10,757 nt of DNA, taken from IMG/VR virus record IMGVR_UViG_2693429677_000014, positions 1 through 10,757 of that record; one strand, written 5' to 3'. Origin of the DNA: a virus (lineage: Duplodnaviria; Heunggongvirae; Uroviricota; Caudoviricetes). Both the position numbers and the translations under genes were made by a program. Of this stretch, positions 1-10,757 are shown one piece after another. Under the pieces are notes generated by a model. That model was not told where the DNA came from. It did no database searches and saw only the letters and a program-made list of their open reading frames with translations. The first letter of the stretch is position 1. Each line of letters opens with the position of its first letter.

Positions 1-682
1 ATACAGAATAATCATCAAAATCAAGTGGGCTATCAGCACCCGGCGTCAGGCTTGCAATATATCCTCTTCCCATAACTTCTGATGCTGGTATTTCTTTTGT
101 ACGATAATCACTAACTCTGAAGAGCTGCCCTTGGTGGGTGTGTAATTCCACTCCTCCATTCTGAAGACTTAGCAAGGCACGTACAGCATCAATACCACGC
201 CCGTCATCCCAGCCACGAATAAACTCACCACGTAAATCAGGCAATTTATTTGTCGGATAAGCCTTTGCCAGTTCCGGGTATTCTTCAGCAGAAAAAGCGG
301 CACCGTTGCATTTCAGCCAGCCTGTTGGCGGAGTGGCTGAAGGCCACGGAACAGGCACCCCAACCGGTAATGCAGAGCCTTCTCCCAAACCAAGGTTTTC
401 GAGAGCCGTTTTCACCGTGCCATCCGATTTGATATCACCAAACGGATTCTTGCGGCTTAACAGCAGAGCACGAAGCGCGGTAAGCAACTGGTCGTGCCGC
501 GCCTTCTCCAGACTGGCACCGGATGCCTCAACAACGCTACAAAGTTCTTCCTGCAACATGTCAAAGTAGTCATCATCCAGATCGGTGGCAGGCGTGCCAG
601 TCTGGGGGTTACCACGGGTAAAACCGTTCTTACCCGCGCCGAACTTATCCTTCTGCGCGGTTTTCGTGTCTATACGATGCAT
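1..682 (-). CDS. stfP: Side tail fibre protein, N-terminal part (e14/Mu S-type, with phage tail-collar domain); CDS is open at the window start
   Basis: Absent from the ORF track because it runs off the window edge. Own minus-strand translation from ATG at 682-680: [47 protein letters not shown]...[72 protein letters not shown]..., no stop down to position 1. Start lies 4 nt after the ymfQ stop. The PWPS...GWLKCNG...YP motif is the tail-collar domain seen in Stf proteins. Confidence 0.75.
230..393. repeat. 164-bp perfect direct repeat, copy 1 (tail-collar coding segment inside stfP)
   Basis: Base-by-base comparison: 230-393 is identical to 1369-1532 in the same orientation; mismatches immediately outside both ends. 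Confidence 0.9.
380..405. promoter_or_regulatory. Hin/Gin/Cin/Pin-type DNA-invertase crossover site (pix-like), inside stfP
   Basis: TTCTCCCAAACC-AA-GGTTTTCGAGAG: two near-palindromic 12-bp half-sites around an AA core, close to remembered hixL (TTCTTGAAAACCAAGGTTTTTGATAA). The repeat boundary falls exactly after the AA core. Confidence 0.6.
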
Positions 683-685
683 GGA

Positions 686-1270
686 TTACTCCGGATATTT
701 AAAAATTACGTAGGTATGCGACGGGCAGAGTTTGTTAAGCACACACTCGACAACGGTGTCGCCCCAGATACGCAGTGCGGAATCACAGGGATCGCCACAT
801 GTCATCCAGGTGGTGTTGGTGGCGGCTGGCATGTTGACCTGCCAGTAATACCGCCATTCCGGCGCATTCACCGCGTCAGTACAGGCCGATGAGCAGGTGA
901 AAGTGCTTTTGTCGTATCGCGTGATGGTGGCATCTGGTCTGCCCAGGGCAGCAAGCTGTGCAAGATAAAAATCCTCGTTGATGCCGCCCGCCAGGTTAAC
1001 CTTCGCATCCAGCCGTTGCTGACGCTGGCGAAGGGTCTGTGTCCCTGCGGGAATACATTCATCCGGCAGACCGCACAGACGCTCCCAGCGGTTTATCAGT
1101 TCATTGGTGGTGCGCGGATCCAGCTCCCGCATAAGGGCATCCGCACGCTGATGAACGCGGGTTAATGACGGTGCCGCACCGGCAATCGCCGGATCGCTGG
1201 CTGACCACGCCGGACCGGGGGGCAACAGTGCCGACAACAGACGGATGTAATCATCGTTTGTCACGTCCAT
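686..1270 (-). CDS. ymfQ: Phage tail protein, DUF2313 / Mu gp48-like (e14 YmfQ-like)
   Basis: ORF track 686..1270, 194 aa, [34 protein letters not shown]...; matches remembered e14 YmfQ in length and sequence; sits immediately upstream of the tail fibre gene as in Mu-like tail modules. Confidence 0.8.
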
Positions 1271-1368
1271 GAAATCGTCCCCAGTACCGCCAGTTCATTT
1301 TTTGCAATGGAGATATTGTCTGCCGGTGCAAGCAACTGATGGCTGTATTCCCCGTTCGCACCGGAAAT

Positions 1369-1532
1369 ACGTAAATCAGGCAATTTATTTGTCGGATAAG
1401 CCTTTGCCAGTTCCGGGTATTCTTCAGCAGAAAAAGCGGCACCGTTGCATTTCAGCCAGCCTGTTGGCGGAGTGGCTGAAGGCCACGGAACAGGCACCCC
1501 AACCGGTAATGCAGAGCCTTCTCCCAAACCAA
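1369..1532. repeat. 164-bp perfect direct repeat, copy 2
   Basis: Identical to 230-393 (checked in 10-nt blocks). Confidence 0.9.
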
Positions 1533-1544
1533 CATTTATGAAAA
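1519..1544. promoter_or_regulatory. Second invertase crossover-type site (pin-proximal), same orientation as the site at 380-405
   Basis: TTCTCCCAAACC-AA-CATTTATGAAAA: left half and core identical to site 1; right half retains the TTT..TGA.AA pattern of hix/gix right halves; lies about 55 bp upstream of the divergent pin start. Confidence 0.45.
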
Positions 1545-1598
1545 TGCAGAAATAACGAGCAAATGGCATCATTCCTGCTTTTGTCAGGGGGCGCTACC

Positions 1599-1727
1599 AT
1601 GCTTATTGGCTATGTACGCGTATCAACAAATGACCAGAACACCGATCTACAACGTAATGCGTTGAGCTGTGCAGGATGCGAGCTGATTTTTGAAGACAAG
1701 ATAAGCGGTACAAAGTCCGAAACCTAG
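1599..1727 (+). pseudogene. pin: Serine DNA invertase (Pin/Hin/Gin family), 5' fragment only; truncated after about 40 codons
   Basis: Own translation: MLIGYVRVSTNDQNTDLQRNALSCAGCELIFEDKISGTKSET*, matching the conserved invertase N-terminus (catalytic Ser in YVRVSTNDQ); homology ends around codon 38-40, then TAG at 1725-1727. Confidence 0.75.
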
Positions 1728-8512: not shown

Positions 8513-8687
8513 GCTTTAACCTCCTGCACATCAACCGCATTCACCGCGCTATTGTGTCTTACAGACTTAAGCGCCGCAATGCAGTCTGACTTGCAAATGC
8601 GATATGGGCTTTTAGGTTTATCTGGATTTATCTTTGCGGCCTGAAGTCGTCCACTTCGTATCCACTGCGTGATAGTGTCTTTGTCTA
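8389..8687 (-). pseudogene. Excisionase-family (AlpA/Xis-like) HTH DNA-binding protein, 5' end cut by IS911; reading frame overlaps the integrase start
   Basis: Minus-strand translation from the IS911 boundary: ...IDKDTITQWIRSGRLQAAKINPDKPKSPYRICKSDCIAALKS..., fitting the excisionase-family winged-helix pattern; no start codon in the flank, first helix missing; frame runs through the integrase RBS and ATG to a stop at 8389. Confidence 0.5.
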
Positions 8688-8759
8688 TGTAGTGGCACAC
8701 TGAATTTGGCCACCTGAACAGAGGTGATATGCTCACCTCAGAACAACACAGGTGCTCCA

Positions 8760-9062
8760 ATGAAAAAAAGAAATTTCAGCGCAGAGTTTAAACGCGAATC
8801 CGCTCAACTGGTTGTTGACCAGAACTACACGGTGGCAGATGCCGCCAAAGCTATGGATATCGGCCTTTTCACAATGACAAGATGGGTCAAACAACTGCGT
8901 GATGAGCGTCAGGGCAAAACACCAAAAGCCTCTCCGATAACACCAGAACAAATCGAAATACGTGAGCTGAGGAAAAAGCTACAACGCATTGAAATGGAGA
9001 ATGAAATATTAAAAAAGGCTACCGCGCTCTTGATGTCAGACTCCCTGAACAGTTCTCGATAA
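8760..9062 (+). CDS. insN: IS911 OrfA (HTH transposase regulator)
   Basis: [100 protein letters not shown], the characteristic IS911 OrfA; the ORF-track start at 8724 is an upstream in-frame extension. Confidence 0.85.
9011..9017 (+). promoter_or_regulatory. Programmed -1 ribosomal frameshift slippery heptamer A AAA AAG (IS911 orfA to orfB)
   Basis: AAAAAAG at 9011-9017 in the orfA frame (codons AAA 9012-9014, AAG 9015-9017); the downstream orfB frame is -1 relative to orfA. Confidence 0.7.
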
Positions 9063-9930
9063 TCGGGAAACTCAGAGCGCATTATCCTGTGGTCACACTC
9101 TGCCATGTGTTCGGGGTTCATCGCAGCAGCTACAGATACTGGAAAAACCGTCCTGAAAAACCAGACGGCAGACGGGCTGTATTACGCAGTCAGGTACTTG
9201 AGTTGCATAACATCAGCCATGGTTCTGCCGGGGCAAGAAGCATCGCCACAATGGCAACCCTGATAGGCTTCAGAATGGGGCGCTGGCTTGCCGGCAGGCT
9301 CATGAAAGAACTGGGACTGGTCAGTTCTTTCATGAGCCTGCGCACCGTTATAAACGAGGTGGTCGTGAACATGTCACTATCCCGAATCACCTTGGGCGGC
9401 AGTTCGCAGTGACAGAGCCAAATCAGGTATGGTGCGGCGACGTGACGTACATCTGGACGGGGAAACGTTGGGCATACCTTGCCGTTGTTCTCGACCTGTT
9501 TGCAAGGAAACCGGTAGGTTGGGCAATGTCGTTCTCTCCAGACAGCAGACTGACCATCAAAGCGCTGAAAATGGCCTGGGAAATCCGCAGTAAACCAGCC
9601 GGGGTAATGTTCCACAGCGATCAGGGCAGCCACTATACAAGCAGGCAGTTCCGGCAGTTACTGTGGCGTTACCAGATCAAACAGAGTCTGAGTCGACGAG
9701 GAAATTGCTGGGATAACAGCCCGATGGAGCGCTTCTTCAGGAGTCTGAAAAACGAGTGGATACCGGTGACGGGTTACATGAACTTCAGCGATGCTGCCCA
9801 TGAAATAACGGACTATATCGTTGGGTATTACAACGCGCTCAGGCCGCACGAATATAACGGTGGGTTGCCACCAAATGAATCGGAAAACCGATACTGGAAA
9901 AACTCTAAAGCGGTGGCCAGTTTTTGTTGA
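9016..9930 (+). pseudogene. insO: IS911 OrfB (DDE transposase) disrupted by a frame change near 9322-9342
   Basis: ORF-track pieces 9089..9412 and 9409..9930 are in different frames; upstream piece ...[16 protein letters not shown] then nonsense, downstream frame resumes ...[38 protein letters not shown]... with the DDE core ([21 protein letters not shown]). Confidence 0.8.
9294..9341. repeat. Perfect 20-bp inverted repeat (GCAGGCTCATGAAAGAACTG / CAGTTCTTTCATGAGCCTGC) with 8-bp spacer, inside IS911 orfB at the frame break
   Basis: Arms 9294-9313 and 9322-9341 are exact reverse complements; the orfB reading frame changes within the right arm. Confidence 0.85.
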
Positions 9931-9968
9931 CCACTACAAATTGGCGACGTTAGCGTTACAGATATTAA

Positions 9969-10688
9969 AGCTCACACACTGGTTCAGGCCGTCCAACCGG
10001 TTCAGGCCAGAGGAGCAAAACCGTTTGTCGCCTGTGCCAGCGCATTAATGAGGTCATGACCTATGCCCAAAACACATGGCTGATTGATGCTGTTCCCAGC
10101 GTTAATATTGGTAAAGCCTTCGAGAAGCCTCAGTAAAAGAACATGCCCAGCATTCGACCGGATCAGCTACCTCAACTGATGCAGACAATGCGAACAGCCA
10201 GCATTAGCCTTTCCACACGCTGCCTGTTCATGTGGCAACTTCTTACTATTACCCGCCCTGCCGAAGCGGCTGAAGCTCGCTGGGAAGAGATAGACATAGA
10301 AGCACAAGAGTGGAAGATTCCTGCAGCACGCATGAAAACGAACCGCGACCATACTGTTCCATTGTCAGATGAAGCAATTGCGATACTGGAGATGATGAAG
10401 CCGTTAAGTGGAAATCGAGAATTTATCTTTCCCAGCCGCATCAAGCCAAACCAGCCGATGAACAGTCAGACCGTAAACGCATAGCTAAAACGCGCAGGTT
10501 TTGGTGGGGTGCTCGTTTCACACGGCCTGCGATCTATCGCCAGTACAGCCCTTAATGAACAAGGCTTTCCGCCTGATGCCATTGAGGCAGCACTTGCCCA
10601 TGTAGACAAGAATGAAGTTCGTCGCTCTTATAACCGCAGCGATTACCTGGAGCAGCGTCGTCCAATGTCAACGACGGATGAAAAGTGA
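9969..10688 (+). pseudogene. P4-like (IntA family) tyrosine integrase, 3' portion only, with two in-frame nonsense codons (TAA 10134-10136, TAG 10482-10484)
   Basis: Frame-0 translation: ...AQNTWLIDAVPSVNIGKAFEKPQ*KNMPSIRPDQLPQLMQTMRTASISLSTRCLFMWQLLTITRPAEAAEARWEEIDIEAQEWKIPAARMKTNRDHTVPLSDEAIAILEMMKPL...[64 protein letters not shown]..., paralleling the P4 Int C-terminal domain (HGxRS box, catalytic Tyr region); N-terminal part absent at the IS911 boundary. Confidence 0.7.
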
Positions 10689-10757
10689 TCCACTTATATC
10701 TCCACCAACGGCCCAATATTGATCCACCGTTTTACTCAGGATTAGCTTCTGCTATAA

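Follow-up and report, generated by a model that had tools for sequence, protein, structure and literature searches.

Does each change of gene content in a crowded stretch of E. coli prophage DNA record its own acquisition, or do most of them share one history? The question is raised by the window analysed here (the whole stretch of 10,757 nucleotides), for which an earlier note proposed at least five independent acquisition or rearrangement junctions with defence-type cargo, as in a defence-island hotspot. In this E. coli window, broken prophages and insertion sequences (ISs) are piled up at a known integration site, the tRNA-Thr gene thrW, and the stretch is an ordinary mosaic defence island carrying two anti-phage systems, GmrSD and a RemAIN homologue; very probably, the window covers the distal portion of an array of decayed mobile elements lying in tandem at thrW, and newer rearrangements cap it on both sides. 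Comparison with 5,426 complete E. coli genomes, and with loci designated Lnnn (L001-L007, L012-L015, L017-L020, L022 and L031 among those used), maps about ten breakpoints: 1368/1369, 1727, 4058, 4229/4230, 6903-6912, 7030-7069, 7292-7337, 8687/8688, 9938/9939 and 10661/10662. The six coordinates given previously (1727, ~4150, 4610-4640, 7292, 8688 and 9938) each mark a real feature, and that list lacked the breaks at 1368/1369, ~4058, ~6903-6912 (truncation of the SRAP gene), ~7030-7069 and 10661/10662 (an IS21-like end). The whole 10.7 kb does not occur as one conserved syntenic block among the complete E. coli genomes, none of which holds 80% or more of it, and ARAGORN finds no complete tRNA gene in the window.

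The core of the window (1369-7291) comes from a single prophage, element A, integrated at thrW, and forms its right arm. Its features, with the att site that follows them, are:

1369-1537, minus strand: second, direct copy of a 169-nt tail-fibre collar segment, truncated at 1369 (first copy at 230-398)
1519-1544, no strand: pix-like crossover site TTCTCCCAAACCAACATTTATGAAAA, read from the sequence
1599-1727, plus strand: pin', a Pin-family serine invertase gene reduced to its N-terminal 43 codons, then a stop (Pfam Resolvase)
1823-3712, minus strand: intact GmrSD-family type IV restriction enzyme, 629 aa from the Met at ORF position 21 (PADLOC, Pfam)
3978-4058, no strand: ~80-bp element normally 3' of the pin-type invertase stop codon, marking the far edge of the GmrSD replacement
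4143-4229, minus strand: dinI remnant, C-terminal 29 codons (annotated so by RefSeq in L001 and L002, where the block is identical)
4224/4230-4605, plus strand: umuC remnant, a frameshifted 3' half with DUF4113 (RefSeq annotation, translation, colinearity)
4643-5308, minus strand: remN homologue, a 221-aa HEPN-domain protein, predicted anticodon RNase effector
5308-5706, minus strand: remI homologue, 132 aa, predicted immunity/inhibitor protein (homology to the Salmonella middle gene)
5699-6544, minus strand: remA homologue, a 281-aa ParA/MinD-type ATPase (homology to the Salmonella first gene, Pfam)
6772-6912, minus strand: remnant of an SRAP gene (YedK-like, SOS response-associated peptidase), C-terminal 46 codons (RefSeq annotation)
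6913-7291, no strand: non-coding right end of element A, from ~7030 on common to most elements at thrW
7292-7337, plus strand: att, where the 3' 46 nt of tRNA-Thr (thrW) are duplicated, aligning to annotated tRNA-Thr in L004 and L001

The block 1518-7406 is found at 99.3-99.8% identity (~99.5%) in many genomes, flanked by thrW-int-yfd genes and att-paoD; at least 80% of 1728-7291 is present in 47 of the 5,426 complete genomes, and the block also occurs in at least 1000 public contigs. Outside E. coli, Enterobacter and Klebsiella prophage ends (L017-L020) have the order invertase-umuD-umuC-[221 aa, 132 aa, ParA]-SRAP-chromosome, and window 4230-6903 (umuC'-cassette-SRAP') aligns to these loci as a single alignment (identities of 85.5% and 82%). 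There the umuC and SRAP remnants are colinear with intact genes of 421-422 and 221-225 aa, respectively. The umuC remnant start placed at ~4150 by the earlier note thus resolves into the dinI remnant on the minus strand followed by the umuC 3' half on the plus strand. Toward the right end, 7029-7291 matches thousands of genomes, and homology to the window resumes at 7069 in L005 and at 7030 in L014.

The abrupt composition changes that had been proposed are present at both borders of the remAIN cassette and, weakly, at the pin'/GmrSD border (z = -2.5), while the other junctions show only by genome comparison. The strongest GC step in the window, from 0.516 to 0.329 (z = -7.0), falls at 4610-4640, and the opposite cassette border has a composition step of z = +3.8. 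That first step had been taken as a rearrangement, the entry into an AT-rich operon; since the window is colinear across it with Enterobacter and Klebsiella prophages, it reads as the natural spacer between the converging genes umuC and remN, and no junction in this lineage.

We infer that ancestral element A would have carried, in order, a tail-fibre invertible segment, the pin invertase, the pin 3' flank, umuDC, remAIN, SRAP and attR, an order still found intact in prophages of Enterobacter and Klebsiella. Three changes would have followed within the E. coli lineage: pin codons 44-184 gave way to a GmrSD type IV restriction module, umuD and the umuC 5' half were lost, leaving the dinI fragment, and the 5' part of the SRAP gene was lost as well. 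The resulting block may then have been passed on as a unit, recombining onto different phage tail backbones. The collar copies form one repeat family (D1, 99% identity, with differences only at 394-395); the segment adjoins pin' in L002 also and occurs in K-12 stfE, and 1369-1537 is the pin-proximal end of the element A invertible segment. The site at 1519-1544, which from knowledge of such sites we take to be a putative Pin/Gin/Cin-type site, has a partner (TTCTCCCAAACCAAGGTTTTCGAGAG) at 380-405. The two are in direct, not inverted, orientation, in which the window differs from e14, because the left part of the window comes from a second e14-like element, which is inverted.

The pin breakpoint reported at about 1727 was well placed: homology to pinE stops at 1722-1733, leaving 43-44 of 184 codons and a stop at 1728, and tblastn with PinE matches residues 1-44 at 93% (RefSeq labels the product a partial recombinase). 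The type IV restriction call was likewise correct, with a PADLOC mREase_IV score of 1437 bits covering profile positions 1-629. Both GmrSD_N and GmrSD_C are found by Pfam, and DGQQR and DIDH motifs occur in the translation; in its whole-protein profile match, both domains and DGQQR plus H-N-H-type motifs, the protein resembles GmrSD (DUF262-DUF1524) enzymes with no notable difference here, and its specificity for modified DNA is predicted. If active, the intact enzyme would cleave modified phage DNA. In L031 an invertase pseudogene is followed at once, on its 3' side, by the ~80-bp element that lies beyond GmrSD here; this element is present, without annotation, in 5,394 of the 5,426 genomes (median 3 copies).

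Full-length GmrSD appears to have replaced most of pin, in the slot that mcrA holds in e14 of K-12 (stfP-tfaP-tfaE-stfE-pinE-mcrA-icdC). Like e14, the window has a tail-fibre inversion module with a Pin invertase, and in both a type IV restriction gene comes straight after pin, at the end near attR; unlike in e14, pin is cut to 43 codons, GmrSD stands in place of mcrA, and the element lies at thrW, not icd. Cargo downstream of pin differs by strain (mcrA, GmrSD, a McrBC-like pair or a type II RM system): the slot reads pinE-mcrA-icdC in K-12 e14, pin'-GmrSD-icd' in L015, pinE-GIY-YIG-methylase-restriction endonuclease in L005, and invertase, 80-bp flank and McrBC-like pair in L031. Variable defence cargo at a fixed position between conserved phage genes has been described for P2/P4 hotspots (Rousset et al. 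2022, PMC9122126), and tRNA-/tmRNA-linked defence islands have been described in E. coli (Hochhauser et al. 2023, PMC10121019). The window shares with these the variable cargo in a fixed slot and the tandem elements stacked at a tRNA att, and differs in that the slot lies downstream of a Pin-family invertase, in e14-like/lambdoid tail modules. Earlier cataloguing of the pin slot is not confirmed, as the main text of neither PMC9122126 nor PMC10121019 names e14, thrW or icd.

What had been called a candidate ATPase system appears from its proteins to be a full-length homologue of the RemAIN system of Salmonella prophage Gifsy-1. All three are homologous over their full length to a Salmonella cassette (L012/L013), at 65% (remA), 32% (remI; E = 8e-22; PHROG 6264) and 49% (remN) identity. 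That cassette follows a prophage repressor and has gene sizes of 840 and 663 bp; by gene sizes, position and host (PMC9879122) we match it to STM14_3218-3220 of Gifsy-1 in Salmonella Typhimurium 14028, reported as RemAIN (Sargen and Helaine 2024, as cited in PMC13043305 and PMC9879122). RemAIN is described as comprising the RemA ATPase, the RemI immunity protein and the RemN HEPN nuclease (PMC13043305), and is reported as an anti-phage system validated by experiment in Salmonella, where it restricts phages and co-resident prophages. The window genes are thus no longer uncharacterised, as the earlier note had them, since their Salmonella homologues were described in 2024, and the cassette is unnamed in PADLOC-DB v2 and RefSeq. 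Both cassettes are prophage-borne and AT-rich, with the same gene order and overlapping frames (281/132/221 aa here, 279/128/220 aa in Gifsy-1), a ParA-type ATPase first and a HEPN protein with an Rx4H motif last. They differ in genus and in position (here the prophage right end between umuC and SRAP remnants, in Gifsy-1 the immunity region after the repressor), and the immunity protein is strongly diverged; with RemI identity at only 32%, triggers and tRNA targets may therefore differ. A fold search with the remI homologue gave no informative match. The ATPase and immunity protein would hold the HEPN anticodon nuclease in check until a phage lytic programme triggers it, and released RemN would stop translation, blocking competing phages. 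Both GmrSD and RemAIN are intact and may be active in E. coli.

Outside element A the window continues with other elements on both sides:

1-686, minus strand: side tail fibre gene of an e14-like prophage, element X, with constant N-terminus, pix site and collar domain, running off the window start
686-1270, minus strand: ymfQ (Mu Gp48-like baseplate gene) of element X (Pfam PF10076, E = 4e-26; RefSeq ymfQ in L003)
1261-1368, minus strand: last 108 nt of the element X baseplate J gene (J'), cut at 1368 (L003 homology)
7352-8512, minus strand: intact tyrosine integrase of lambdoid prophage B (Pfam Phage_integrase)
8389-8687, minus strand: prophage B excisionase gene, 5' end cut by an IS (PHROG 2907 excisionase, E = 1e-42)
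8688-9938, plus strand: IS911-like IS3-family element, 1,251 bp (ends and flanks)
9939-10661, plus strand: fragment of a P4-type integrase pseudogene of the ssrA-linked EspC island (Pfam Phage_integrase)
10662-10757, no strand: IS21-family terminus inside the integrase pseudogene 3' end, running off the window

On the left, 1-1368 has 99.85% identity to L003 6001-7368; against the thrW element of strain W21, relative to which it is inverted, identity falls to 94.7%. The L003 counterpart of the fibre gene is annotated as a phage tail protein, and Pfam finds the collar domain on the paralogous copy. Homology ends at L003 7368, inside the baseplate J/gp47 gene, and the 1368/1369 join is blunt, with zero shared bases; it would be the inverted end of a second, ~5%-divergent e14-like prophage. 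On the right, the att fragment noted at ~7292 is indeed a partial thrW copy, and it is the border between element A and element B. The prophage B integrase is 100% identical to a thrW-adjacent gene in strain 2015C-4136CT1; in L005 a complete prophage B follows the integrase, and L005 homology stops at 8687. Most of element B would have been removed next to the IS911-like element.

The positions 8688 and 9938 are the exact ends of that element, which is no simple insertion, because it has no target-site duplication (flanks cta and aat) and the closest genomes have its two flanks ~2.3 Mb from each other (4.587 Mb for the left junction and 2.265 Mb for the right in 2015C-4136CT1). This copy would bridge thrW DNA and the ssrA-island integrase pseudogene, whose fragment is 100% identical to E2348/69 (L007 7001-7729) and L006. 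The IS21-like end has 97.9% identity to that of an E2348/69 IS21-like element (L007 4675-4771), beside istB. In the IS911-like element, a templated +2-nt change at 9326-9334 puts orfB out of frame relative to the L004 and L006 copies, and the element also holds a perfect 20-nt palindrome (I1).

How independent, then, are the junctions? A chromosomal hotspot in which five or more pieces were independently acquired or rearranged in this genome would suit the many breakpoints and strong GC steps at the cassette borders, the movement of the remAIN cassette as a unit between unrelated contexts (Salmonella, Yersinia, Dickeya, E. coli L022), and the partner element after att, which varies by genome (lambdoid prophage, P4-type islands, P4 satellite, integrative mobilizable element or nothing). 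We regard it as improbable, as 1727, ~4058, ~4230 and ~6910 co-travel in the one conserved block, intact prophage ends from other genera match umuC'-cassette-SRAP' colinearly, and pin'-GmrSD is common to e14-like prophages at icd and other sites; the events therefore predate this genome and are mostly decay of one prophage arm. For 1727-6912, colinearity and block conservation largely refute independent acquisition. The locus is a genuine integration and defence hotspot, with att-separated tandem elements, a variable partner after att and variable pin-slot cargo, but its junctions are not independent. The same breakpoints also fit a history in which a umuC'-remAIN-SRAP' fragment entered the right arm of an e14-type element, with 4058 and 7030-7069 as the insertion borders, and in L005 these flanks are only ~90 bp apart. 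The cassette itself might instead serve the partition or maintenance of a plasmid-like prophage, or be a simple toxin-antitoxin addiction module: its first gene is a ParA/MinD-type ATPase, and ParA/Soj-HEPN pairs have been predicted to be toxin-antitoxin systems (PMC3710099). This is very improbable, given the reported restriction by the Salmonella homologue; moreover, the ATPase (Pfam AAA_31 and CbiA; KGGVGKT Walker A motif) reaches none of the NCBIfam partition cut-offs (77 vs 180 bits), the cassette has no recognisable ParB/centromere-binding partner, and it sits in integrated prophages at moron positions, one just after the repressor. The toxin-antitoxin reading does not preclude the defence one.

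Returning to the tandem array at thrW, its capping joints (J'/tail fibre, the IS911-like thrW/ssrA bridge and the IS21-like end) are each absent from all complete genomes searched, so they cannot be confirmed as biological; they may be either recent rearrangement or misassembly. That they, above all the IS911-like bridge, are assembly chimeras across repeated ISs is possible, though we lean against it. Both IS copies are direct repeats ~2.3-2.5 Mb apart in all seven related genomes examined, a real recombinant with such flanks would have to be a lethal deletion or the joint of a megabase-scale duplication, and the two reference copies differ at one base only, so collapse would be easy. Against this, 1368/1369 is not an assembler-prone repeat boundary, J' sequence lying there between two repeat copies; the window IS has private changes lacking in both reference copies and is thus a distinct copy; and two different ISs enclose the 723-bp integrase fragment, an arrangement that real IS-driven shuffling would be expected to leave.

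The main outcomes of the analysis are an unannotated homologue of the RemAIN system and a position for varying cargo downstream of the Pin-family invertase gene, and both lie in DNA in which most breakpoints are scars inherited from one prophage arm. This arm (element A, 1369-7291) is the right end of a prophage at the tRNA gene thrW; it is preceded by a piece of an e14-like prophage (element X, 1-1368) and followed, after an att copy, by a lambdoid prophage (element B). The features below were derived from six-frame ORFs, Pfam, PADLOC, PHROGs and NCBIfam, together with alignments to annotated E. 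coli genomes; no RNA genes were found in the window by Rfam (at gathering threshold) or ARAGORN.

Features of the window (coordinates; strand; feature)
1-1368; -; element X, from an e14-like prophage: tail fibre, ymfQ and the final 108 nt of baseplate J
1369-1537; -; 169-nt tail-fibre collar segment, second copy
1519-1544; no strand; pix-like crossover site
1599-1727; +; Pin invertase, first 43 codons (pin')
1823-3712; -; GmrSD, intact
3978-4058; no strand; conserved pin 3' flank, about 80 bp
4143-4229; -; dinI remnant
4230-4605; +; umuC 3' half, frameshifted
4643-6544; -; three-gene cassette, AT-rich
4643-5308; -; remN (cassette)
5308-5706; -; remI (cassette)
5699-6544; -; remA (cassette)
6772-6912; -; remnant of SRAP (SOS response-associated peptidase) gene
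6913-7291; no strand; element A right end, non-coding
7292-7337; +; att, the 3' 46 nt of tRNA-Thr thrW
7352-8512; -; lambdoid integrase of element B, intact
8389-8687; -; excisionase, truncated
8688-9938; +; IS911-like element
9939-10661; +; P4-type integrase pseudogene, fragment
10662-10757; no strand; end of an IS21-family element

An earlier note had counted at least five independent acquisition or rearrangement junctions here, and every coordinate it listed corresponds to a real feature: pinE homology ends at 1722-1733 and is followed by a stop codon, the dinI and umuC remnants abut at about 4229, GC content shows a drop near 4606 (0.516 to 0.329, z = -7.0) and an upward step near 6650 (z = +3.8), the thrW fragment starts at 7292, and the IS911-like element ends exactly at 8688 and 9938. 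Further junctions, absent from that list, lie at 1368/1369, about 4058, about 6903-6912, 7030-7069 and 10661/10662. Composition marks the borders of the cassette and, weakly, that between pin' and GmrSD; the other junctions are compositionally unmarked and were seen only by genome comparison. The count of independent acquisitions itself does not stand, as the events are neither independent nor recent: at least 80% of 1728-7291 is present in 47 of 5,426 complete genomes, which share the core breakpoints. Since the block is kept in these genomes, the breakpoints at 1727, 4058, 4230 and 6910 predate the source genome and move jointly. Tallying compositional or gene-content junctions thus inflates the number of independent acquisitions. 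The opposite reading, of one conserved syntenic block, holds for this core; it is inapplicable to the whole window, as no complete E. coli genome carries at least 80% of it.

The block (1518-7406) recurs in many genomes at 99.3-99.8% identity and always in the same position, at the far end of a prophage that starts with thrW and an integrase gene and ends with an att copy followed by paoD. On its other side the block adjoins either e14/Mu-like baseplate genes or lambdoid J-Lom-Stf tails, depending on the strain, and the umuC'-remAIN part is found without pin'-GmrSD in two strains. Exact RemN and RemA proteins are each encoded on at least 1000 public contigs. Decay of the block was also observed (loci L002 9490-12701 and L008 6003-7620; H17/H123): GmrSD is frameshifted and remN shortened in 23S01245-7, and there are IS1 insertions, one inside the block in VG1046-3E9 and one inside remA in Dickeya.

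The ancestral gene order is preserved in other genera. Prophage ends in Enterobacter (loci L017 and L018) and Klebsiella (L019-L021) run from tail fibre through invertase, umuD, umuC, the cassette genes and the SRAP gene to the chromosome, and in these lambdoid prophages umuC (421-422 aa) and the SRAP gene (221-225 aa) are intact. The alignment of window 4230-6903 to these loci is unbroken (85.5% and 82% identity); a single fragment therefore ends raggedly in umuC on one side and in SRAP on the other, and the proposed junction at 4610-4640 disappears, the GC step at 4606 being the ordinary gap between the convergent umuC and last cassette gene. We infer that the ancestor of element A was a thrW prophage arm of the type pin-umuDC-remAIN-SRAP, from which deletions would have removed umuD together with the 5' portions of umuC (half of the gene) and of the SRAP gene, and in which most of pin would have been lost to a GmrSD module.

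GmrSD is a single polypeptide (Pfam GmrSD_N, E = 8e-34; GmrSD_C, E = 4e-20) with an N-terminal DUF262 domain (GmrS-like NTPase) and a C-terminal DUF1524 domain (GmrD-like His-Me nuclease), and the motifs IIDGQQR and DIDHLMP are readable in its translation. PADLOC matches it end to end as mREase_IV with 1437 bits; NCBIfam has no model for GmrSD, RemI or RemN. Members of the GmrSD family restrict phages carrying modified cytosines, and the protein of the window would be expected to do the same. At 1765-1803, between the neighbouring stop codons of pin' and GmrSD, a GC-rich hairpin (agcggcctta...taaggccgct) is probably the GmrSD terminator and probably arrived with the GmrSD module.

Downstream of GmrSD lies the about 80-bp element at 3978-4058, which is unannotated and yet present in 5,394 of the 5,426 complete E. 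coli genomes (median 3 copies, up to 9); where examined, it sits directly past the stop codon of pin-type invertase genes, and it could be a terminator or a recombination flank. Because this flank persists, GmrSD replaced codons 44-184 of pin and spared the pin 3' flank. A surviving C-terminal piece of pin beyond GmrSD was sought by tblastn and none was found, only the non-coding 3' flank remaining.

The position downstream of pin holds differing restriction or defence genes in different strains. K-12 e14 ends pinE-mcrA-icdC; an O166:H15 strain has pin'-GmrSD-icd' at the e14 site, with pin cut at the same position as in the window; and in strain PEC131 pin'-GmrSD is present, with unrelated DNA taking over from window position 4053. 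EH08-18-36 keeps an intact pinE and, downstream of it, genes for a GIY-YIG protein and for a methylase and an endonuclease of type II; its sequence then rejoins the window at 7069 and continues with an att copy and the same integrase B, there with a complete prophage. ECGC74 carries an invertase pseudogene, the 80-bp element and then an AAA ATPase with McrC. There may be a slot in the tail modules of e14-like and lambdoid prophages whose far edge is the element at 3978-4058, and with its known contents (mcrA, GmrSD, a McrBC-like pair, type II restriction-modification) the position offers a practical site for mining further defence genes.

The second predicted defence module is the AT-rich cassette, an operon whose three genes lie on one strand, encode in turn an ATPase, a small protein and a predicted nuclease, and overlap by 8 nt and 1 nt; the triplet is conserved in a further five genomic contexts. 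The P-loop ATPase RemA is of the ParA/MinD type (Pfam AAA_31, E = 8e-38; CbiA) and has the deviant Walker A motif KGGVGKT at residues 12-18. RemN (221 aa) is a HEPN protein with an Rx4-6H catalytic motif, as shown by R86-x4-H91, invariant among 29 homologues, and by a confident AlphaFold model (pLDDT 88); an HMM built from the RemN alignment had no match among PDB sequences. Of the three proteins, only the ParA-type ATPase is recognised by PADLOC-DB v2, Pfam and NCBIfam; PADLOC, which detected GmrSD, did not detect the cassette as a system; PHROGs assigns RemI and RemN to families of unknown function, and a DNA search of phage and plasmid collections with the cassette returned only ParA-box fragments.

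The prototype lies in Gifsy-1 of Salmonella. In S. Typhimurium 14028, STM14_3218-3220 form a variable three-gene region of this prophage next to the repressor: an 840-bp gene for a ParA-like ATPase, a small one, and one of 663 bp; a 2023 study found the region to be required for activation of RtcR, and for RtcR-dependent induction of the rsr-rtcBA RNA-repair operon, in the SOS response, and its deletion to raise Gifsy phage titres (PMC9879122). A 2026 paper names these genes RemAIN and presents RemN as a HEPN nuclease accompanied by the RemA ATPase and the RemI immunity protein; the system is described there as acting as an anticodon nuclease and as protecting against several Salmonella phages (PMC13043305, which cites Sargen & Helaine 2024). 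The cassette proteins match those of two Salmonella loci (L012 and L013) over their full length at 65%, 32% and 49% identity (RemA, RemI and RemN), and these loci agree with STM14_3218-3220 in gene sizes (840 and 663 bp) and in their position after the repressor. Judging from sizes, position and host, the L012 cassette is probably STM14_3218-3220, and the cassette of the window is accordingly filed as an E. coli RemAIN homologue. The uncharacterised genes that the note put forward as anti-phage candidates belong to a system already described in 2024.

Without umuC or SRAP, the cassette occurs in a lambdoid prophage of Salmonella, directly behind the repressor; in Dickeya, within a P4-integrase island (the copy with IS1 in its ATPase gene); in Yersinia, beside toxin genes; and in a different E. 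coli setting. It reached the umuC-SRAP prophage lineage from another source. By analogy with Salmonella, RemI and RemA would restrain the HEPN anticodon nuclease until the lytic programme frees it. The immunity protein has strongly diverged, and the trigger or the tRNAs cut may differ from those of the prototype; in the many strains that carry it, the E. coli system might also link the RtcR/RtcB RNA-repair response to prophage induction. By the same analogy, cassette-bearing E. coli strains might share the strain-specific rsr-rtcBA induction of Salmonella. The joint reading, in which the pin-downstream position is a dedicated, uncatalogued exchange slot for defence genes and the cassette is a RemAIN variant with another trigger or other tRNAs and with RtcR/RtcB coupling, seems to us rather doubtful as a whole. 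In public contigs RemA and RemN of the window are labelled only "ParA family" or "hypothetical", and E. coli defence surveys relying on PADLOC-DB v2 or on current labels would miss this homologue of a validated system. GmrSD and remAIN together lie within 4.8 kb, flanked by an invertase remnant, att, two integrase genes and two insertion sequences, which supports the view of the region as a defence-bearing hotspot. None of these findings alters the current understanding of defence islands.

Further elements are stacked at the same tRNA gene. The att copy consists of the 3' 46 nt of thrW, with the stop codon of integrase B 15 nt further on, an arrangement that identifies a tRNA-linked element. 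In 2015C-4136CT1 and its relatives the genuine thrW is directly followed by integrase B, with 100% identity to window 7292-8750; in the window integrase B is preceded by the 46 nt only, and element A lies in between. What follows att in block-carrying genomes varies: lambdoid prophage B, islands with a P4-type integrase (carrying an N6-methylase and an ORC-like protein), a P4 satellite, a relaxase IME, or nothing. Genomes with nothing after att retain the last 54 nt of integrase B (window 7341-7406; 14823-14888 in locus L001); the tandem arrangement is therefore ancestral, and prophage B was deleted later. In the window, the lambdoid prophage sharing att would later have been gutted beside the IS911-like copy. 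One post-att island (loci L023 and L026-L028, about 2400-6400 in each) encodes a P4-type integrase, an N6-methylase/Eco57I-like protein, a protein weakly matching ORC/CDC6 and an unknown protein of 356 aa, and may be further defence cargo stacked at this att.

Element X shares 99.85% identity with the e14-like prophage of FDAARGOS_1284; relative to the thrW element of W21 it is inverted and only 94.7% identical, while for the neighbouring block the identity to W21 is 99.76%. Within 1-686, the constant tail-fibre part already carries a collar-type variable end, and another collar copy lies beside pin'; because one invertible segment cannot give both copies, the left 1.4 kb comes from a second e14-like element. 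The joint at 1368/1369 is blunt: its left side falls within the J gene, and its right side is 169 nt away from the crossover site. This joint occurs in no complete E. coli genome searched, and an exact 40-mer across it had no match among genome contigs. A blunt join to a second e14-like prophage would account for the left outer joint. The pix-like sites at 380-405 and 1519-1544, each ending a 169-nt repeat (230-398 and 1369-1537), share the half-site TTCTCCCAAACC in direct, not inverted, orientation, and with pin reduced to 43 codons the Pin/Gin-type tail-fibre switch is dead.

On the right, rearrangements at two insertion sequences would have produced the outer joints. The IS911-like copy is an IS3-family element with both inverted repeats (TGTAGTGG...CCACTACA) and an intact orfA; a +2-nt change disrupts orfB, and there is no target-site duplication in the flanks, cta and aat. 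It is not a simple insertion: in seven related genomes the left flank lies at thrW and the right flank in the integrase pseudogene of the ssrA-linked EspC island, each at an IS copy, the two copies being in the same orientation about 2.3-2.5 Mb apart. Recombination between such direct repeats leaves a duplication joint or deletes DNA, here with lethal effect; additional unseen rearrangements and misassembly are the other options. The reference copies differ at one base, where the window has the allele of the thrW copy, so that IS mismatches are uninformative as a crossover marker; and the missing duplication is no proof of recombination, as both reference copies also lack duplications, because of adjacent deletions. 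The last 96 nt (10662-10757) are an IS21-family end inserted near the 3' end of the integrase pseudogene, so that the 723-bp integrase fragment is sandwiched between two different insertion sequences; the joint at 10661/10662 was found in no complete E. coli genome searched. Within the IS911-like copy (9294-9341), eight clustered changes at 9326-9334, including the +2 nt, set the window apart from the two reference copies; they turn an imperfect inverted repeat into a perfect 20-nt palindrome and frameshift orfB. Such a pattern points to a single quasipalindrome template-switch mutation or to a sequencing artefact.
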